Shown in pieces: positions 9,209 to 39,432 of a stretch of 64,000 bases of DNA; position 1 is the stretch's first letter; every line of letters begins with the position of its first letter. The position numbers and the translations under genes were made by a program. The stretch lies in the NCBI RefSeq assembly GCF_988243305.1, contig NZ_OZ547136.1; one strand, 5' to 3'. The notes under the pieces were generated by a model, which did not search any database, had not been told where the DNA came from, and saw only the letters and a list, made by a program, of their open reading frames with translations.

Positions 9209-12200
9209 TTAACCGATCGTCATTAAACTGGCGTTACCGCCAGCGGCAGCGGTATTCACACTCAGCGAACGCTCGATATACAGCCGTTCCAGCAGGATAT
9301 TGCTTTCGCCACGGGCAAAACCCTGCACCGAAACAATTGCGCCATCCCGCGCGGCAACTGCTTCACACAATGCGCGAAGCTGATCCGAATCACCGTGGAA
9401 GATCACCGCATCAAACGGTTGAGCGGTTATATTTTCCGCTTTCGCCAGTTGAATACGTTCGCTGACTGCCGATGGCAATGCCTTCACTAACTGACGATGC
9501 AGCGCGTCATCCGGCCACAGCACCTGGCTGCCCACCGCCAGCACGGCGGCGAGCTGAGTCAGCGCATCCTGCTCATCATCCGCAATACACAACACGCGCT
9601 CGCGCGGCAGCAGCGTCCAGGTGTTGCGTTCACCCGTCGGCCCTGGCAGCAATCGTTGTGTTCCTGCCTGCGCCAGCTCGCCATATTGCGTACATAACGC
9701 CTGCAATTCTGGACGGTTTGCCGCCCATTCCCGCAGTGCATTTAGCGGCTGAGTCAATGCGGCTTTCAACTGCGCATCGACCGGATACTCTGCATCCTGA
9801 CGCGCGAGCGTCACTGCCAGTGCACTTTCCGGGCGATTCGCCAGCAGACGGTAGAGATAGAGCGGACCGCCTGCTTTCGGCCCGGTGCCGGACAACCCTT
9901 CGCCGCCGAATGGCTGCACCCCGACCACTGCGCCCACCATATTACGGTTAACGTACAGGTTACCGACATGGGCCGAGCCAGTGACCTGGGCGATGGTTTC
10001 ATCAATGCGCGTATGGACGCCAAGCGTCAGACCATAACCGGAAGCGTTAATTTGCTCGATCAGCTCCGGCAGCTGGTTACGGTTATAACGCACCACATGC
10101 AGCACCGGACCAAAGACCTCTTTTTGCAATTCGGCAAAGTCATCCAGTTCAATCAGCGTCGGGGCGACAAAGGTGCCGCTTTGCCATTCACGGGCATCTT
10201 CACTGTTTTCCCGCACTGCCTGGAACACCGGACGGCCTTTACTACGCATAGTCTGAATATGACGCTCAATATTGGCTTTCGCTTCGCTATCAATCACCGG
10301 ACCGATATCGGTGGTCAGGCGACCAGGATTACCCATCCGGCATTCGGCCATTGCGCCGCGCAGCATTTTCAACGTGTGGTCGGCAATCTCATCTTGCAGG
10401 CACAGCACGCGCAGTGCCGAACAACGCTGGCCCGCACTGTCGAACGCTGAGGCCAGCACATCTATTACGACTTGTTCGGTCAGGGCGGAGGAGTCGACAA
10501 TCATCGCGTTCATGCCGCCGGTTTCCGCGATGAGCGGAATAGGGCGACCCTGAGCGTCCAGGCGGCTGGCGATATTGCGTTGCAGTAACGTAGCGACTTC
10601 GGTTGAACCGGTAAACATCACCCCGCGCACGCGATCATCACCCGTCAGTTGCGCGCCCACGGTTTCCCCCTGACCTGGCAGCAATTGCACCACGCCTGGT
10701 GGTACACCCGCTTCCAGCAAAATTGCGATCCCTTGCGCGGCAATCAGCGGCGTTTGTTCTGCCGGTTTTGCCAGCACGCTGTTACCTGCCGCCAGTGCGG
10801 CGGCGATCTGCCCGGTGAAAATAGCCAGCGGGAAGTTCCACGGACTGATACACACCACAGGCCCTAATGGACGGTGGGTTTCGTTAGCGAAATCATCCCG
10901 CACCTGTCCGGCGTAGTAGTGGAGAAAATCGACCGCTTCGCGCACTTCGGCAATGGCGTTACTGAAGGTTTTTCCGGCCTCACGCACCAGAATACCAATC
11001 AGTTGCTGCATCTGGCTTTCCATCAGCACGGCAGCGCGATGCAAAATCGCCGCGCGTTCAGCCGGAGGCGTGGCAAACCAGATTGGCGCGTTATTAACCG
11101 CACTTTCCAGCGCCAGTTCTACTTCACGCGGCGTGGCTTCACGCACATAGCCCACAATATCTTTCGGTTCCGCAGGGTTAATAACGGGCGACATCTCACC
11201 AGCCGTGACCGGTTGTTCCAGCATTGGCAAGGCCTGCCATTTTTGCAGTGCACTATTGAGCAGGGCAGAAGAGAGCGAGGCCAGACGGTGTTCGTTAGCG
11301 AGATCCAGCCCTGCCGAGTTGTCGCGCCCGTGACCGTAAAGATCGCGCGGCAGGGGAATTTTCGGATGCGGTAATCCAGTTTGCCCTTCCTGTTGCGCCA
11401 GTTTTTCTACAGCAGTGACCGGATCGGCGACCAGTTCATCCAGTGGCAAAGAGGTGTCGGCAATACGGTTAACAAACGAGGTGTTAGCACCGTTTTCCAG
11501 CAGGCGGCGCACCAGATACGCCAGCAGCGTTTCATGTGTGCCAACCGGGGCATAAATACGACACGGACGGTTAAGTTTGCCGTCGGCAACTTTCCCGGTG
11601 ACCTGCTCATACAGTGGCTCGCCCATACCATGCAGGCACTGGAACTCGTACTGACCCGGATAGTAGTTTTGACCCGCCAGTTGATAAATTGCCGCCAGCG
11701 TATGGGCGTTGTGCGTCGCGAACTGCGGGTAGATTAAATTCGGCACCGCCAGCAGCTTTTTCGCACAGGCGAGATATGAAACGTCGGTATACACCTTGCG
11801 GGTATAAACCGGATAACCTTCAAGGCCGTCCATCTGTGCACGCTTGATTTCACTATCCCAGTACGCGCCTTTCACCAGGCGAATCATCAGACGGCGACGG
11901 CTGCGGGTGGCGAGATCAATCAGGTAATCAATCACCAACGGACAGCGTTTTTGATAAGCCTGAATAACAAAACCGATGCCGTTCCAGCCTGCCAGTTCCG
12001 GCTCGAAACAGAGTTTTTCCAGCAGATCGAGGGAGATCTCCAGACGATCGGCCTCTTCGGCATCGATGTTAATACCAATATCGTACTGACGCGCCAGCAG
12101 GGTGAGTGATTTCAGACGCGGGTAAAGCTCTTCCATTACCCGATCATACTGGGCGCGGCTGTAACGCGGATGCAGCGCCGACAGCTTGATTGAAATGCCC

Positions 12201-15220: not shown

Positions 15221-15755
15221 CCGGGCTCTGGCGAACAAAATCGCCGCTGCGCGGTACCTTCAGCTTATCCCCTTCGGCTACCGGGTCGGGCGCGAGGTAA
15301 TGTCCTATAAGACGCGCCCTCAGCCCACATCCATGTGGGCTGCCCTGGCCTTCGGGGAACGCTTCAGCGACTTTGACGCCACCAACACCCGAGCTGTTAT
15401 TATGTTCCGGGCAAAAAGTTAGATTTGATAATCGCGGATGGACGAAATTGCTTGATACACCCGCTTATCAGTTTTACATGGAAGCTCTGATGCATTGAGT
15501 CTGGACAGTTTTGTCGGCTGGATAAGGCGTTTACGCGGCATCTGGCAAGAACACATGGCTCGTTGTAAACAATCCCATCTTTGTACCTGGAATAATCGTT
15601 TATATCCCTTGCCATTACCTCTCTTTGTTTACATTCCAACATCATTTTATAAACATTCCGCTTGTATTTTTCTTTGCCGTAATGATAATCGCTATCACTG
15701 CGATTTACTTTTCTTTGCATAGATTGACTCAGAAAAACGTTTAAGGGTGGGTGGC

Positions 15756-16586
15756 ATGTTTGTTCCATTTCTCATTATGTTGCGCGAAGGACTTGAAGCC
15801 GCGCTGATTGTCAGTTTGATTGCCAGCTATCTTAAGCGTACCCAGCGAGGCCGATGGATTGGTGTGATGTGGATTGGCGTGTTGCTTGCCGCTGCGTTGT
15901 GCCTGGGCTTGGGTATCTTCATTAACGAAACCACCGGCGAATTTCCGCAAAAAGAACAGGAACTGTTTGAAGGTATCGTGGCGGTGATCGCCGTGGTGAT
16001 CCTTACCTGGATGGTTTTCTGGATGCGCAAAGTGTCGCGCAACGTCAAAGTACAACTGGAGCAGGCAGTCGATAGCGCATTGCAGCGTGGGAATCATCAT
16101 GGCTGGGCGCTGGTGATGATGGTCTTTTTTGCCGTTGCAAGGGAGGGGCTGGAGTCGGTCTTTTTCCTGCTGGCGGCGTTTCAACAAGATGTCGGGATCT
16201 GGCCGCCGCTGGGTGCAATGCTCGGTCTTGCTACAGCCGTGGTGCTCGGCTTCCTGCTCTACTGGGGCGGTATTCGCCTCAATCTTGGTGCATTTTTTAA
16301 ATGGACCAGCCTGTTTATTCTCTTCGTCGCCGCAGGGCTGGCGGCTGGTGCCATTCGCGCATTTCATGAAGCCGGATTGTGGAACCACTTTCAGGAAATC
16401 GCCTTCGATATGAGCGCGGTGCTCTCAACTCACTCGCTGTTTGGCACGCTGATGGAAGGGATTTTTGGCTATCAGGAAGCGCCGAGCGTCAGCGAAGTCG
16501 CCGTCTGGTTTATTTATCTCATCCCGGCGCTGGTGGCATTTGCTCTGCCACCACGCGCAGGGGCGACAGCGTCTCGCTCCGCGTAA
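15756..16586 (+). CDS. efeU: Ferrous iron permease EfeU (FTR1 family), apparently intact
   Basis: Uninterrupted ORF 15747..16586 with REGLE motifs; start placed at MFVPFLIM. Confidence 0.8.
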   Translation: MFVPFLIMLREGLEAALIVSLIASYLKRTQRGRWIGVMWIGVLLAAALCLGLGIFINETTGEFPQKEQELFEGIVAVIAVVILTWMVFWMRKVSRNVKVQLEQAVDSALQRGNHHGWALVMMVFFAVAREGLESVFFLLAAFQQDVGIWPPLGAMLGLATAVVLGFLLYWGGIRLNLGAFFKWTSLFILFVAAGLAAGAIRAFHEAGLWNHFQEIAFDMSAVLSTHSLFGTLMEGIFGYQEAPSVSEVAVWFIYLIPALVAFALPPRAGATASRSA

Positions 16587-16643
16587 CAAATACGACGCAA
16601 ACTCTTGCTTAGTTACAACATACTTTAAAGGGATAGTCTCGTC

Positions 16644-17771
16644 ATGACCATTAACTTCCGCCGTAACGCATTGCAGTTTAGCGTGGCTGCGCTGTTCTCT
16701 TCTGCTTTTATGGCTAACGCCGCTGATATTCCGCAGGTCAAAGTCACTGTGACAGATAAACAGTGCGAACCGATGACCATTACGGTTAACGCCGGGAAAA
16801 CACAGTTCATTATTCAGAACCACAGCCAGAAGGCGCTGGAGTGGGAGATCCTCAAAGGCGTGATGGTGGTGGAAGAGCGGGAAAATATCGCCCCTGGTTT
16901 TAGCCAGAAAATGACGGCGAATTTACAGCCTGGCGAATACGATATGACCTGCGGTCTGCTGACTAACCCGAAAGGGAAGTTGATCGTCAAAGGTGAGGCA
17001 ACGGCGGATGCGGCGCAAAGTGATGCGCTGTTAAGTCTTGGTGGTGCAATTACTGCATATAAAGCGTATGTCATGGCGGAAACCACACAGCTGGTGACCG
17101 ACACCAAAGCCTTTACCGACGCGATTAAAGCAGGCGATATCGAAAAAGCGAAAGCACTGTATGCACCGACGCGCCAGCACTATGAGCGCATTGAACCGAT
17201 TGCTGAATTGTTCTCCGATCTGGATGGCAGCATTGACGCCCGTGAAGATGATTACGAGCAAAAAGCCGCCGATCCGAAATTCACCGGTTTCCACCGTCTG
17301 GAAAAAGCATTGTTTGGCGACAACACCACCAAAGGGATGGATAAGTACGCTGACCAGCTTTATACCGATGTGGTCGATTTGCAAAAACGCATCAGTGAAC
17401 TGGCTTTCCCACCTTCAAAAGTGGTCGGCGGTGCAGCCGGACTGATTGAGGAAGTGGCAGCCAGCAAAATCAGCGGTGAAGAAGATCGCTACAGCCACAC
17501 CGATCTGTGGGATTTCCAGGCTAACGTTGAAGGCTCGCAGAAAATTGTCGATCTACTGCGTCCACAACTGCAAAAAGCCAACCCGGAACTGTTGGCAAAA
17601 GTCGATGCCAACTTTAAAAAGGTCGATACCATTCTGGCGAAATACCGTACTAAAGACGGTTTTGAAACCTACGACAAATTGACCGATGCCGACCGGAATG
17701 CACTGAAAGGACCGATTACTGCGCTGGCGGAAGATCTGGCGCAACTTCGCGGTGTGCTGGGACTGGATTAA
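16644..17771 (+). CDS. efeO: Periplasmic iron uptake protein EfeO
   Basis: 375-aa ORF with signal peptide, in efeUOB order. Confidence 0.85.
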
Positions 17772-17776
17772 ACGTT

Positions 17777-19048
17777 ATGCAGTATAAAGATGAAAACGGC
17801 GTGAATGAACCGTCACGCCGACGTTTACTGAAAGGGATTGGTGCACTGGCGCTGGCGGGAAGTTGTCCGGTCGCTCATGCACAAAAAACGCAAAGTGCGC
17901 CGGGTACGCTTTCACCGTATGCACGCAATGAGAAACAGCCGTTTTATGGTGAGCATCAGGCAGGGATCCTGACACCACAACAGGCTGCAATGATGCTGGT
18001 GGCGTTTGATGTGCTTGCCAGCGATAAAGCCGATCTTGAACGGTTGTTTCGCTTGTTGACTCAGCGTTTTGCTTTTCTGACTCAGGGCGGAGCGGCACCA
18101 GAAACGCCAAATCCGCGCCTGCCACCACTCGATTCCGGCATTCTTGGCGGCTACATTGCGCCCGATAATCTCACCATCACGTTATCGGTGGGTCACTCAT
18201 TGTTTGATGAGCGCTTTGGCCTTGCGCCACAGATGCCAAAAAAGTTGCAGAAGATGACGCGTTTCCCTAATGACTCGCTGGATGCGGCGTTATGTCATGG
18301 TGATGTGTTGCTACAAATTTGCGCCAACACCCAGGATACGGTGATCCATGCGCTGCGCGATATCATCAAACACACGCCGGATTTGCTCAGTGTGCGCTGG
18401 AAGCGGGAAGGGTTTATTTCCGATCACGCGGCGCGTAGTAAAGGCAAAGAGACGCCGATAAATTTGCTGGGTTTCAAAGACGGCACTGCCAATCCCGATA
18501 GCCAGAATGATAAGTTGATGCAACAAGTGGTGTGGGTGACGGCAGATCAGCAGGAGCCTGCGTGGACAATCGGCGGCAGCTACCAGGCGGTGCGGTTGAT
18601 TCAGTTTCGGGTGGAGTTTTGGGACAGAACGCCACTGAAAGAACAGCAGACGATTTTTGGTCGCGACAAACAAACCGGTGCGCCGCTGGGAATGCAGCAT
18701 GAGCATGATGTTCCCGATTACGCCAGCGATCCGGAGGGGAAGGTGATTGCGCTGGACAGCCATATCCGGCTGGCGAATCCCCGCACGCCAGAGAGTGAGT
18801 CCAGCCTGATGCTGCGTCGTGGCTACAGTTATTCGTTGGGCGTCACCAACTCCGGACAACTGGATATGGGGCTACTGTTTGTCTGTTACCAACACGATCT
18901 GGAAAAAGGCTTCCTGACAGTACAAAAAAGGCTCAATGGCGAAGCGCTGGAGGAATACGTTAAACCTATCGGCGGCGGTTATTTTTTTGCGCTGCCGGGG
19001 GTGAAGGACACGAACGATTATCTGGGAAGGGCGCTATTACAGGTTTGA
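17777..19048 (+). CDS. efeB: Dyp-type peroxidase EfeB (Tat-secreted)
   Basis: 423-aa ORF with twin-arginine signal (SRRRLLKG). Confidence 0.85.
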
Positions 19049-19058
19049 ACGACGCAAA

Positions 19059-19153
19059 TATGCCCGATGCGCAGGTTTATCGGGCATGAGTTTGGTGCAC
19101 AAATTATTAATCACTTGTAGGTCGGGTAAGGCGTTCACGCCGCATCCGGCAAG
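19059..19153. repeat. REP-like palindromic units downstream of efeB
   Basis: Hairpin atgcccgat...atcgggcat, then a REP-like gtaggtcgggtaaggcgttcacgccgcatccggcaag. Confidence 0.5.
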
Positions 19154-19370
19154 CTTTTACCAGTACTGCGAATCCTGCTGAAAGCACACAGCTTTTTTCA
19201 TCTCTGTCATCACTCTGTCATCTTTCCAGTAGAAACTAATGTCACCGAAATGGGTGTTTATCGTTAAATATAAGTGAATATATTGTTGCAATGAATGCGA
19301 GATCTGTTGTACTTATTAAGTAGCAGCGGAAGTTCCCGGCAGTGATAGTCAGTCACTATGGAGATCGCGG

Positions 19371-20435
19371 ATGGTAACGTCCTGTACTGGACATGTTTTA
19401 GATAATCAGCGCGCCACCACTCGCGGAGATTTCTCCTCCGGTAGTCATCTCGTCACTTTGTATTTTCAACCTCATCCTTTCTTTTCATGTGTTACCGACG
19501 CCGTAAACGGTGCGCGTAGCCGTTTTTCGGCATTTTATCCAAAAGCAAACTATGGCTTACAAGGAAGCCAACCCTCTGATGTTCGTGCGCATAATCGCGC
19601 TGCCAACGGCGCGTGTGATGAATACAAACAACTCAAGGTGCTCTCCATGGGAAGACAAAAAGCAGTGATCAAAGCTCGTCGCGAGGCAAAACGTGTGCTG
19701 AGACGGGATTCGCGCAGCCATAAGCAGCGTGAAGAAGAATCGGTCACCTCGCTTGTGCAGATGAGCGGCGTAGAAGCCATTGGTATGGCCCGCGACAGTC
19801 GCGATACCTCGCCCATCCTCGCGCGAAATGAAGCGCAATTGCACTATCTGAAGGCTATTGAGAGTAAGCAGCTGATATTCGCCACGGGCGAAGCCGGGTG
19901 CGGAAAAACCTGGATCAGCGCAGCAAAAGCGGCAGAGGCCCTGATACATAAGGATGTCGACAGGATTATCGTCACCCGTCCAGTTCTGCAAGCCGATGAA
20001 GATCTTGGCTTCTTACCTGGAGATATCGCAGAAAAGTTTGCTCCCTATTTTCGTCCGGTCTACGACGTGCTGGTCCGGCGCTTAGGGGCTTCCTTTATGC
20101 AGTACTGCCTGCGACCGGAAATAGGGAAGGTGGAAATTGCGCCGTTCGCCTATATGCGTGGACGTACCTTTGAAAATGCAGTCGTCATTCTTGACGAGGC
20201 GCAGAATGTGACTGCCGCGCAAATGAAAATGTTTTTAACCCGCCTCGGGGAGAACGTGACGGTTATCGTCAACGGTGATATCACGCAATGCGATTTGCCT
20301 CGCGGCGTGCGCTCCGGATTAAGTGACGCGCTGGAACGTTTCGAAGAAGATGAAATGGTCGGGATCGTCCGATTCGGTAAAGAGGATTGCGTACGTTCGG
20401 CACTTTGCCAACGTACGCTACATGCATACAGTTAA
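19371..20435 (+). CDS. phoH: PhoH, phosphate-starvation-inducible ATPase
   Basis: 354-aa ORF with Walker A GEAGCGKT. Confidence 0.85.
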   Translation: MVTSCTGHVLDNQRATTRGDFSSGSHLVTLYFQPHPFFSCVTDAVNGARSRFSAFYPKANYGLQGSQPSDVRAHNRAANGACDEYKQLKVLSMGRQKAVIKARREAKRVLRRDSRSHKQREEESVTSLVQMSGVEAIGMARDSRDTSPILARNEAQLHYLKAIESKQLIFATGEAGCGKTWISAAKAAEALIHKDVDRIIVTRPVLQADEDLGFLPGDIAEKFAPYFRPVYDVLVRRLGASFMQYCLRPEIGKVEIAPFAYMRGRTFENAVVILDEAQNVTAAQMKMFLTRLGENVTVIVNGDITQCDLPRGVRSGLSDALERFEEDEMVGIVRFGKEDCVRSALCQRTLHAYS

Positions 20436-20453
20436 GTGTATTATCGGCGCAGA

Positions 20454-20482
20454 GCCCGGGCGAACCGGGCTTTGTTTTATTT
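20454..20482 (+). terminator. Putative rho-independent terminator of phoH
   Basis: gcccggg-cgaa-cccgggc hairpin followed by tttgttttattt. Confidence 0.55.
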
Positions 20483-20997
20483 CATTAACAGCAAAGACTT
20501 TCACTTCAGGTTAACGTTCTGGGGGGCGACTTTGAGCGTGTTGATAAGCTGAAATGAATTCTGGTTTAGATACTTTTACCAGGCATTTTTCGTCATAGCA
20601 CGCGACCAATGTAATGCCGCCAGCGCGGAGAGTTTTTTGCCTATCTTTTTCCAGCCATTCAACCTGTACAGGAGGTCTGGTGCCAATTTTGCGTATGAGG
20701 TTTAATCAACAATGGGCCAAAATTTGACTGACTGATTAACACCGAATATATTCTCCTGATTTTATTTTTTAGGGATAATATTAAAAATATAAGGTTAATC
20801 TTAATTAAATTTTTGGCTAATATTGTGTGTTGTTATTTTTTGTGGACGGCAAGCCGCAATGGCAAAATAGGTATGGTTGTAATAATCAAAACATGATACT
20901 AACTATATATAGATCGTTGAATTGTTGGCATGTAACTCGCTACAGCGAGTAGCGTTAGTAATGAAATATAATCAACATGGATAGGTGAAGATTAATT

Positions 20998-21684
20998 ATG
21001 AGCTTTATGGTTTTTGTAACTTGTTTGACAATTGCATTTGTCGCCGGTTTTGCTGTTGCCAGAAAATTGACACTCCGAAAAGTTGCCTCATCGGTAATCA
21101 TCACTAGATCGCAACCAGTCCCTTCCTCTGCAACTTCCCCTGCTGCTAAGGCGTCGACAAGGAGCTATACACCGCAGAAAACCTATCGTGACTCTCGTTG
21201 GCAAGAACGAGATGAGTTGTTCCAGGGAATGGTTGCCGAAGGTATTTTATTGGAAGGAAAAGAGTGGTTAATTACGCGTTGTGAAAAAATTTATTTTGAT
21301 AATCTGGAGAAATGGTTTGGACATTCTTGTCATATCCATTGCCAGGTCTCTCTGGGGCGCTTGATCAACTTTCCAGAACAACCCGAGTTTAGCGAAGAAG
21401 AAAGAAAGCGTTTCTTTGCAATTTATAATGGAATGGCAATGGATTATGTTCTGGTTTCAAAGAAGAACAATAAAATAGTCTGTGTTATTGAGCTGGATGA
21501 GCCGAGTCATGAAAGGGCAGATCGCATTATTCGTGACCGTTGGTTGAATACGATTATGACTATTGCACGGGTGCCTTTTGTACGAGCTTCTGTCACTAAA
21601 TTGGATGAAATCCCTCCGGTCTGGGATACCCGTGACAAAATTCGCCCATTAGCCGCGGCGACAAAGGGTGAACCGTTGCATTAA
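20998..21684 (+). CDS. Membrane-anchored DUF2726-like protein
   Basis: 228-aa ORF with N-terminal TM helix and a C-terminal region that I read as DUF2726-like (NFPEQPEF ... VIELDEPSHE); AT-rich promoter region upstream. Confidence 0.55.
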   Translation: MSFMVFVTCLTIAFVAGFAVARKLTLRKVASSVIITRSQPVPSSATSPAAKASTRSYTPQKTYRDSRWQERDELFQGMVAEGILLEGKEWLITRCEKIYFDNLEKWFGHSCHIHCQVSLGRLINFPEQPEFSEEERKRFFAIYNGMAMDYVLVSKKNNKIVCVIELDEPSHERADRIIRDRWLNTIMTIARVPFVRASVTKLDEIPPVWDTRDKIRPLAAATKGEPLH

Positions 21685-21691
21685 CTAAGTA

Positions 21692-21969
21692 CCCCGGTCA
21701 GGGCTTCTCATCTCCCCCGGTGTGTGCAATATACGAAAAAAAAGCCCGTACCTTCGTACGAGCTCTTCTTTAAAGATGGCGGTGAGGGGGGATTGACTCG
21801 CTTCGCTCGCCCTGCGGGCAGCCCGCTCACTGCGTTCACGGTCTGTCCAACTGGCTGTCGCCAGTTGTCGAACCCCGGTCGGGGCTTCTCATCCCCCTGT
21901 GTGTGCAATATACGAAAAAAAAGCCCGTACCTTCGTACGAGCTCTTCTTTAAAGATGGCGGTGAGGGGG
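21692..21969. repeat. Two ~99-bp near-identical direct repeats separated by ~81 bp
   Basis: Copies at ~21692–21790 and ~21872–21969; on the minus strand each carries a stem-loop followed by T8. Confidence 0.6.
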
Positions 21970-22129
21970 ACCGCCTGAAATAAATCTGACTTAATCCAGG
22001 GGTGTTATATAATTTCATTATAAACAATGTATTACACTTTTTGTTGTCCGATATTATCTAATGTATTCTTAGTGAAGCGAGAGACTAATGGCATACTGGA
22101 TGGCATACCAGAGTGACGGGAATTAGCGT

Positions 22130-23332
22130 ATGGCAGTATTGACGGATACGAAAGCAAGACATATCAAACCTGATGACAAACCATTGCCCCATGGGGGAAT
22201 TACCGGACTGACCCTTCATCCTTCTTCAGTAAAGGGGCGGGGGAAATGGGTTTTTCGTTATGTAAGTCCGGTGACACAAAAAAGACGTAATGCTGGATTG
22301 GGAACTTACCCAGAGGTCAGTATTGCTGAAGCTGCACGTACTGCCCGGATAATGCGAGAGCAACTTGCTGCAGGTGATGATCCTCTGGAGATTAAAAAGG
22401 CTGAATCTGAGAAAGTCGCTATCCCAACATTTGCCGATGCAGCCAGGCGTGTACATGCAGAACTGTCTCCTGGATGGGAAAATCCAAAGCATGTAAGGCA
22501 GTGGTTATCGACGCTTGAGAATTACGCGTTTCCTCAACTGGGAGCAAAAACGCTGGATTCGATTACGGCTGCGGACGTGGCAGAAACACTGCGTCCAGTC
22601 TGGTTAACCTTATCAGAAACGGCAAGCCGGGTTAAACAGCGCATTCATGTTGTTATGCAGTGGGGATGGGCGCACGGTTTTTGTGTAGCAAATCCTGTTG
22701 ATGTGGTTGACCATTTGCTTCCTCAGCAGACAAGAGGACGTGATGAACACCAACCCGCAATGCCCTGGAGGCAGTTACCGCTTTTTGTGGCGACCAGTGT
22801 GTATACCGATGAACCTTATAATGTTACCCGCGCACTGTTATTAATGGTGATACTTACAGCAACTCGCTCGGGCGAAGCCAGGGGAATGCGCTGGGCTGAA
22901 ATTGATTTTCATAAGCGGGTATGGACTATACCTGCAGAAAGAATGAAAGCTAGGCTACAGCATCGTGTTCCTTTATCCCGGCAGGCTATTTACATTCTGG
23001 AAAATATACGTGGCCTGCATGATGAACTGGTGTTCCCTTCACCCAGAAAGCAGCAGATCCTTTCCGATATGGTGTTGACAAGTTTTCTGCGTAAAAAGAA
23101 AGCCGTCAGTGACATTCCGGGGCGAGTTGCCACGGCACATGGTTTTCGCTCAACATTCAGGGACTGGTGTAGCGAACAGGGGTATTCGCGGGATCTGGCG
23201 GAAAGGGCGCTCGCTCATACGCTGAAAAATAAGGTTGAGGCGGCATATCATCGTACTGATCTACTGGAGCAGCGTGTACCGATGATGCAGGCATGGGCGG
23301 ATTATGTGATGTCTCAAATTGTGAATAAATAA
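22130..23332 (+). CDS. P4-type tyrosine integrase
   Basis: 400-aa ORF with arm-binding-type N-terminus and C-terminal catalytic region (HGFRSTF ... LAH ... Y) as in P4/CP4-57-type integrases. Confidence 0.85.
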   Translation: MAVLTDTKARHIKPDDKPLPHGGITGLTLHPSSVKGRGKWVFRYVSPVTQKRRNAGLGTYPEVSIAEAARTARIMREQLAAGDDPLEIKKAESEKVAIPTFADAARRVHAELSPGWENPKHVRQWLSTLENYAFPQLGAKTLDSITAADVAETLRPVWLTLSETASRVKQRIHVVMQWGWAHGFCVANPVDVVDHLLPQQTRGRDEHQPAMPWRQLPLFVATSVYTDEPYNVTRALLLMVILTATRSGEARGMRWAEIDFHKRVWTIPAERMKARLQHRVPLSRQAIYILENIRGLHDELVFPSPRKQQILSDMVLTSFLRKKKAVSDIPGRVATAHGFRSTFRDWCSEQGYSRDLAERALAHTLKNKVEAAYHRTDLLEQRVPMMQAWADYVMSQIVNK

Positions 23333-38218: not shown

Positions 38219-38545
38219 ATGACTAAAAATACTCGTTTTTCCCCCGAAGTCCGTCAACGGGCAGTCCGTATGGTTCTGGAAAGTCAGAGCGAATATGACT
38301 CACAATGGGCGACAATTTGTTCCATTGCTCCAAAGATTGGCTGTACGCCGGAGACTCTGCGTGTCTGGGTTCGCCAGCATGAGCGGGATACCGGGGGCGG
38401 TGATGGAGGGCTCACCACCGCTGAACGTCAGCGTCTGAAAGAGCTGGAACGTGAAAATCGTGAACTGCGCCGCAGTAACGATATCCTTCGCCAGGCTTCC
38501 GCTTATTTTGCGAAGGCGGAGTTCGACCGCCTCTGGAAAAAATGA
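38219..38545 (+). CDS. IS3-family transposase OrfA (copy 1)
   Basis: 108-aa HTH/leucine-zipper OrfA ([19 protein letters not shown]...). Confidence 0.85.
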
Positions 38546-39432
38546 TGCCACTGCTGGATAAGCTGCGTGAGCAGTACGGGGTCGGACCGCTATGCAGCGA
38601 ACTGCATATTGCCCCGTCAACGTATTACCACTGTCAGCAACAGCGACATCATCCGGATAAACGCAGTGCCCGTGCGCAGCGCGATGACTGGCTGAAGAAA
38701 GAGATACAGCGCGTATACGATGAAAATCACAAGGTATACGGTGTGCGTAAAGTCTGGCGTCAGTTGTTACGGGAAGGTATCAGAGTGGCCAGATGCACTG
38801 TGGCACGTCTCATGGCGGTTATGGGACTTGCCGGTGTTCTCCGGGGTAAAAAGGTCCGTACGACCATCAGCCGGAAAGCCGTTGCCGCAGGCGACCGCGT
38901 AAACCGTCAGTTCGTGGCAGAACGACCTGACCAGCTGTGGGTGGCTGATTTTACTTACGTCAGCACATGGCGGGGCTTCGTCTATGTGGCGTTCATCATT
39001 GATGTGTTTGCCGGATACATCGTGGGGTGGCGGGTCTCATCGTCCATGGAAACGACATTCGTGCTGGATGCACTGGAGCAGGCGTTATGGGCCCGTCGAC
39101 CGTCCGGCACGGTCCATCACAGTGATAAAGGTTCTCAGTATGTATCGCTGGCCTACACACAGCGGCTTAAGGAAGCCGGATTACTGGCATCAACAGGAAG
39201 TACAGGCGACTCGTATGACAACGCGATGGCGGAGAGCATCAATGGTCTTTACAAAGCGGAGGTAATACACCGTAAGAGCTGGAAAAACCGTGCAGAAGTG
39301 GAACTGGCCACACTCACGTGGGTGGACTGGTATAACAATCGACGATTGCTGGAAAGGCTGGGCCATACTCCTCCGGCAGAAGCAGAAAAAGCTTATTATG
39401 CTTCCATCGGAAACGATGATCTGGCAGCCTGA
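38542..39432 (+). CDS. IS3-family transposase OrfB, DDE integrase core (copy 1)
   Basis: 296-aa ORF overlapping orfA, typical programmed-frameshift arrangement. Confidence 0.85.

Follow-up and report, generated by a model that had tools for sequence, protein, structure and literature searches.

The serX trailer array and its neighbours

The window, that is, the whole 64,000-nt stretch of contig NZ_OZ547136.1 that was analysed, carries a pair of direct repeats between a gene for a DUF2726 protein (20998-21684) and a tyrosine integrase gene (22130-23332, plus strand). The integrase is of the P4 family and of the type found in serX/serW islands (OI-43/48, SpLE1, SRL-PAI); its domain matches NCBIfam PRK09692 (E = 3.5e-55), and PGAP names the product a tyrosine-type recombinase/integrase. 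The gene and its upstream arm are found at 99% identity or more in 1,042 records, with O157:H7 strains at 99.8% among the matches listed. The arm (21970-22129) holds a promoter-like site reading toward int on the plus strand (21986-22013) and a direct pair of TGGCATAC motifs at 22089-22096 and 22101-22108. These lie 12 nt apart, and the motif is found nowhere else in the 64 kb. In strain SW4848 it recurs as an inverted pair, seen as GTATGCCA, which follows the terminator at the serX-proximal island end and mirrors the pair upstream of int in the window. The TGGCATAC pair is a candidate for the arm-type sites of the integrase.

A repeat search returned a 78-nt direct repeat, 21713-21790 and 21892-21969, at 99% identity and 179 nt from start to start. 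Pairwise alignment extends the repeat to 21691-21790 versus 21872-21969, with about 95 of 100 columns identical; the ~99-nt copies differ by three substitutions and by a 2-nt indel within a C-run. The first-pass annotation, which had described two near-identical units of about 99 bp, was thus accurate to within 1 nt. It had also assigned a stem-loop followed by T8 to the minus strand of each unit, and this structure is present in both: on that strand CCCCCTCACCGCCA is followed in each copy by 49 nt of trailer, with a hairpin of -20.5 kcal/mol (z = -6.1) and T8 at its end. The fold is equal in the two copies, and none of 200 shuffled sequences matches the stability of the hairpin, which is far beyond chance. 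The ~81 bp between the units, taken at first for a unique spacer, are in fact the body of a ~180-bp tandem unit. The two copies and the interval make up 1.55 periods of one such unit and are not independent elements. Tandem Repeats Finder calls no array at 21691-21969 because the array is shorter than two full periods.

Read on the minus strand, away from the integrase, the array begins with the 14-bp att core TGGCGGTGAGGGGG (minus strand CCCCCTCACCGCCA) at 21956-21969. This is the last 14 bp of serX, a cryptic ser'X remnant; it is identical to a published direct repeat, and homology to the empty site ends here. It is followed by the native serX 3' trailer and intrinsic terminator (21912-21955; hairpin 21915-21950, T8 21915-21922), recognised by folding and by comparison with strains elppa4 and K-12. 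The trailer is identical to the sequence after serX in elppa4, which has an empty site, and near-identical to the serX and serW trailers of K-12. One complete RtT-like unit occupies 21777-21911. Its last 14 nt (21777-21790) are a copy of the att core and its last 18 nt are the 19-nt tRNA 3' end minus one C. The 11-mer TGGCGGTGAGG, which lies inside the 14-mer, has its only window sites at 21777 and 21956, both within the full 14-mer. The body of the unit folds at -56 kcal/mol (z = -3.0) as a single sequence, and the predicted structure is a tRNA-like, closed four-way junction of several hairpins with a free UCACCGCCA tail. A second trailer and terminator (21733-21776; hairpin 21736-21771, T8 21736-21743), with the same fold as the first, leads into the 5' part (~42 nt, 21691-21732) of a next RtT-like unit, identified by alignment to the K-12 units. 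This distal unit is truncated and runs up to the DUF2726 stop codon; the empty-site genome is truncated at the same point.

Several other features lie near the array or in the island. The segment from phoH to the array (20436-21691), which includes the DUF2726 gene, is lower in G+C (0.41) than efe-phoH (0.52). It stands where K-12 has ycdU-ymdE-IS3-dgcT-pgaABCD, so that the distal flank of the serX trailer array is occupied by alternative cassettes, and the point of array truncation differs between the two backgrounds. NCBIfam holds no family for the DUF2726 protein or for its 605-aa neighbour. A strong Rfam match to Ysr251 (192.8 bits; 20237-20430, minus strand) is antisense to the 3' end of phoH and occurs in K-12 and other E. 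coli as well. Inside the island, two identical ALIL pseudoknot matches (38500-38616 and 58468-58584, plus strand), which are IS3-family frameshift signals, point to two IS3-type copies, and the sRNA families STnc100 and STnc490 are matched at 56724-56938 and 59696-59819 (plus strand). A weak Rfam tRNA match at 54195-54262 (plus strand; 30.7 bits, cut-off 29), not called by ARAGORN, has a CAT anticodon-like loop, a good T-arm, a CCACCA end and a poor acceptor stem, and probably represents a pseudo-tRNA carried by the island. It adjoins a break in colinearity with SW4848 at ~54364.

Identity of the repeats and their chromosomal origin

When Rfam was searched with an E-value threshold, the unit at 21777-21911 (minus strand) matched the RtT family RF00391 over the full model (1-130) with 43.5 bits (E = 4e-07), 1.5 bits below the curated gathering cut-off of 45 bits; at gathering thresholds there is no match at 21691-21969. 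Orthologous units in K-12 and in another E. coli genome (H12), 98% identical, score 46.3 bits and exceed the cut-off, so that the window unit is assigned to RtT by orthology to these and not by its own score. A search with the locus (21400-22300) of 5,426 complete E. coli genomes found the gene order efeUOB-phoH-DUF2726-repeats-integrase, and in many E. coli genomes PGAP labels this locus "RtT sRNA". The copy in the window goes unlabelled because of the missing 1.5 bits, whereas its 98%-identical orthologues carry the label. The proposal that the repeats are duplicated ends of a small RNA gene was therefore essentially right.

Three characters of RtT arrays are found here. Tandem units of ~178 bp stand directly 3' of a tRNA gene, with a period of 179 in the window and 181 in K-12; the unit closes with a copy of the upstream tRNA's 3' end, CCA included, AATCCCCCC(C)TCACCGCCA being common to the units and serX; and the secondary structure covaries in an RNAalifold alignment of 20 units from ~15 species. 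K-12 shows the arrangement in full. Its serX is followed directly by three RtT-like units of period 181, scoring 46.3, 46.3 and 36.1 bits; the classic tyrT-tyrV units of the same genome score 133-138 bits against RF00391. Each serX unit ends in AATCCCCCCCTCACCGCCA, which is the last 19 nt of serX, and then repeats the serX trailer and terminator, so that K-12 holds four copies of the tag. The 179-nt period at 21777-21955 is 98.3% identical to the K-12 serX-trailer unit. The paralogue serW of K-12 has the same trailer and terminator with no repeat array. An earlier assignment of the tag to a serU-like tRNA was dropped, since the K-12 sequence shows it to be that of serX/serW, tRNA-Ser(GGA).

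Strain elppa4, which is near-isogenic and island-free, has the order ghrA-serX-array-DUF2726-phoH, with the same two copies after an intact serX. The match to window positions 15693-21969 is 99.27% over 6,278 bp and halts at the first base of the 14-bp core in serX, which is the point of insertion. The closest island-bearing genome is SW4848 (99.2%), where the intact serX lies ~82 kb away and is followed directly by island DNA. The protein accessions for DUF2726, PhoH and EfeB are identical in elppa4 and SW4848. The three-way comparison of the empty site, the serX side and the integrase side gives a clean attB x attP pattern, in which serX and the far junction lie beyond the window and were read from SW4848, a 99%-identical relative. 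The far copy of the 14-bp core is within the intact serX of that strain, where the island supplies a replacement intrinsic terminator directly after the serX CCA (SW4848 17908-17990; -17.5 kcal/mol, z = -6.4). ARAGORN calls no tRNA anywhere in the 64-kb window, and the window holds no second core for the far end of the island. As the window is also colinear with SW4848 to ~56.3 kb, the island runs off its right end. The orientation of the integrase, which is distal to the tRNA and reads toward it, was considered as a sign of inversion; this was rejected, since OI-48 has the same layout (PMC3064760) and both junctions are clean.

The array is therefore chromosomal and predates the island, and only 21956-21969 is an att element. 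The repeats are, with high confidence, the native RtT-like 3' trailer array of the tRNA-Ser(GGA) gene serX, severed from its tRNA by insertion of the island. What looks like an att duplication made by the island is a pre-existing tRNA trailer array, in which the outer 14 bp alone are the true att core. The feature as such is ordinary, already known and annotated, and explained by known biology; the literature search found no paper that names both rttR and serX.

The locus is best accounted for by the following sequence of events. In the ancestral state, serX is followed by tandem units of ~180 bp, each composed of an RtT-like, tRNA-like body, a copy of the tRNA 3' end (~19 nt, with CCA), and the trailer and terminator that belong to the tRNA itself. 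An island with a P4-family integrase (OI-43/OI-48/SRL-PAI type) then recombined with the last 14 bp of serX. Its far end kept the intact serX with a 3' end and terminator supplied by the island, and the integrase side kept the original 14 bp and the trailer array. The outer copy accordingly consists of the serX 3' remnant, the trailer and the start of unit 1, and the inner copy of the unit 1 tag, the trailer and the start of the truncated unit 2. Copy number presumably shifts by unequal crossing-over.

Three other origins were weighed. On the first, offered in part by the first-pass annotation, successive or tandem integrations would have duplicated the att site, and the 81 bp would be the scar of a lost element. 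Each copy does contain the exact 14-bp core, and SRL-type integrases use more than one site, serX and serW (PMC2297512). This reading keeps a true element, in that the outermost 14 bp (21956-21969) are the att repeat of the island (PMC3064760). The duplication itself was not made by integrations: the same copies and "spacer" follow the intact serX in elppa4, K-12 has four tags, the "spacer" is a conserved RtT body behind tRNA-Ser(GGA) across Enterobacteriaceae, and an island joined to an internal tag is not seen among the E. coli genomes searched (see below). Since the array follows serX in the empty-site genome, the duplication predates the island, and an origin by successive integrations is very improbable. 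Still less probability attaches to repeats carried by the island as terminal repeats or cargo. Their position directly against the integrase gene and the low G+C content (0.41) of the adjoining DUF2726 segment would fit, but colinearity with the island-free genome spans the whole array to 21969, the array has a G+C content of 0.57 against 0.40 in the adjoining island DNA, and the unit occurs in 3,373 genomes, the integrase in just 1,267.

Equally negligible is the reading that the units are a dispersed intergenic family of the REP/BIME/ERIC kind, at the border by chance. Up to 11 places per E. coli genome carry the unit, but K-12 MG1655 has three places, and its three full units are all in the serX trailer; of 8,326 places in E. 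coli, 8,319 are chromosomal; and in other genera every unit with a nearby tRNA is just 3' of tRNA-Ser(GGA). The scatter of many copies over unrelated intergenic regions of one genome, typical of such families, is not seen. The small repeat family proposed by the first-pass annotation is thus real, but it is specific to a locus, trailing tRNA-Ser(GGA), and not dispersed. The same annotation would have given up the link to the island border if the units proved to be a known ubiquitous family. The family is indeed a known one, but its location is bound to the integrase's target tRNA, so that the association with the border is real, if indirect.

Conservation, internal cores and expression

The 179-nt unit was found in 3,373 of the 5,426 E. 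coli genomes, at 1-11 places each (median 2). Sampled loci have 2-4 tags per array and 1-3 full units, a variation that fits VNTR behaviour. An exact 27-mer of the unit recovered 30 loci in ~25 species, mostly Enterobacteriaceae (Citrobacter, Enterobacter, Klebsiella, Raoultella, Kosakonia, Franconibacter, Pluralibacter, Yokenella, Entomohabitans, Escherichia and Pantoea). tRNA-Ser(GGA) lies just upstream in 26 of these, the remaining four being cut by contig ends. In Pantoea ananatis the tRNA 3' end and the unit tag have the variant CCCCCTCTCACCGCCA in common. Of the 44 pairs predicted from the 20 aligned units, 14 show changes on both sides that preserve pairing, in a set that was picked via the invariant 27-mer and whose 5' part therefore cannot vary; the compensatory changes are concentrated in hairpin 2 (6 of 8 pairs) and in the trailer hairpin. 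Some serX-type units (Enterobacter, Kosakonia, Franconibacter, Klebsiella, Raoultella) have a conserved extra segment in the third hairpin (…CACAAAAATGCCGGGAGCATTTTTGAACAACGCCTGCGTTGGCCCCGAAGGGGCGAGGCCCAGGGATGGGCC…), which has the look of a small insertion into the RtT body.

In every unit the 14-bp core recurs together with five further identical bases and an identical 3' flank. A chimeric query, the 3' end of an RtT unit joined to the serX-proximal end of the island, had no match covering at least 80% of it in any of the 5,426 E. coli genomes; the control junction, the serX 3' end with the same island end, was found in 1,355. In this sample, then, integration is limited to the true tRNA, and the internal core at 21777-21790 is unused. 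Because internal tags with an identical core are not used, recognition by the integrase appears to need sequence 5' of the shared 19 nt, in the T-arm. In Yokenella regensburgei ATCC 49455 (record positions 9290-9560), an RtT tag (…CACCGCCATATTTGA) is followed by unrelated DNA, which has its own hairpin and repeated TGTGCCATC/TGTACCATC motifs in place of the trailer hairpin. An element may have joined an internal tag at that locus, which would make it a counter-example; no integrase was found within the 2 kb examined.

Between int and the array, a promoter scan found nothing sigma-70-like on the minus strand; the sole promoter-like site there, at 21986-22013, faces int. With no promoter facing the array, the whole island parting it from the serX promoter and serX provided with a replacement terminator, the array would be a transcriptionally orphaned relic and is probably silent. 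The hairpin just after the DUF2726 gene is scored as terminator-like on the plus strand too, and by this prediction the hairpins may act as bidirectional terminators between that gene and the island.

It is unlikely, on present evidence, that the orphaned array still works, either transcribed from an island or int-divergent promoter to give an RtT-like RNA or, mainly, as a bidirectional terminator insulating int from DUF2726/phoH. Compensatory changes conserve its structure, the hairpin is terminator-like on both strands, and many island-bearing genomes keep the array intact. On the other side, the scan gave no promoter-like site facing the array, arrays range freely from 1 to 3 full units, the tRNA receives a terminator from the island, and the function of RtT is given as unknown even at tyrT (PMC7542023; bioRxiv 10.1101/2024.07.17.603846). 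More doubtful still is a wider proposal, in which the RtT-like units would be a functional tRNA-like module conserved by compensatory evolution, their tags refractory to integration and the integrase a reader of the T-arm, and the array a decoy or buffer for serX islands. If this were true, the array might shape where, and how stably, serX islands sit. The unused internal cores and the conservation of serX-type units across genera are small additions that leave current understanding unchanged.

Relation to known islands and RtT arrays

In O157:H7 EDL933, a perfect 14-bp direct repeat, TGGCGGTGAGGGGG, lies at both ends of OI-43 and of OI-48. It corresponds to the last 14 bp of serW/serX, the Shigella SRL-PAI has the same repeat, and the integrase adjoins a cryptic ser'X (PMC3064760). 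The 14-mer repeat and SRL-PAI are also covered in PMC7545054 and PMC2297512, and integrase-dependent excision between the repeats is experimental for OI-43/48 and SRL-PAI (PMC3064760, PMC7545054). In the published accounts consulted, nothing is said of further copies of the 14-mer within the trailer array. The window island shares the characters of the group. Its integrase-side copy of the repeat, at 21956-21969, is identical to that of OI-43/OI-48 (SpLE1) and of the S. flexneri SRL-PAI; insertion is exactly at the serX 3' end with the tRNA intact; and an O157/SRL-type P4-family integrase lies likewise beside the ser'X remnant, with the gene order of OI-48. It differs in cargo. It carries IS elements, iro remnants, afa-type fimbriae and malX, colinear with SW4848, and has neither ter/ure nor SRL resistance genes.

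The textbook case is the tyrT locus, where a 178-bp unit is reportedly present in about three copies that each include 19 bp from the 3' end of the tRNA (work ascribed to Egan and Landy in 1978 and Rossi et al. in 1981). The RtT units of tyrT-tyrV (RF00391; rttR in K-12) and those of serX are alike in being tandem units of ~178-181 bp directly 3' of a tRNA gene, and in ending with a ~19-nt copy of their own tRNA's 3' end including CCA. They have in common the blocks GATGAGAAGC, GGTTCGA, CCCG.AGGGCGA and AGT.AATCC and a closing stem around internal hairpins. Both are VNTR-like; for Salmonella, PMC2658671 lists rtT among the VNTRs (175 bp). PMC7542023 cites Bosl and Kersten 1991 for the description of the rtT RNA; on that citation, release of a stable RNA by processing of a tRNA primary transcript is known only for tyrT. 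The two kinds of unit differ in the source of the tag, which is tRNA-Ser(GGA) (…CCCTCACCGCCA) in serX units and tRNA-Tyr (…CCCCCACCACCA) in tyrT units, and in their RF00391 scores, those of the serX type (36-46 bits) being far under those of tyrT (133-138 bits). No tpr-like peptide gene is annotated in the serX-type unit. Each serX-type unit has its own strong intrinsic terminator, and in the alignment the tyrT units are without one at that position.

The serX array of K-12 is the ortholog of the array in the window, with the same trailer, the same terminator and a unit that is 98.3% identical. K-12 has three full units, the window one full and one truncated unit. The distal flank is the DUF2726 gene in the window and ycdU-dgcT-pgaABCD in K-12. 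In K-12 the array lies directly after serX; in the window it is cut from serX by the island, by at least 42 kb within the window and by ~82 kb in SW4848.
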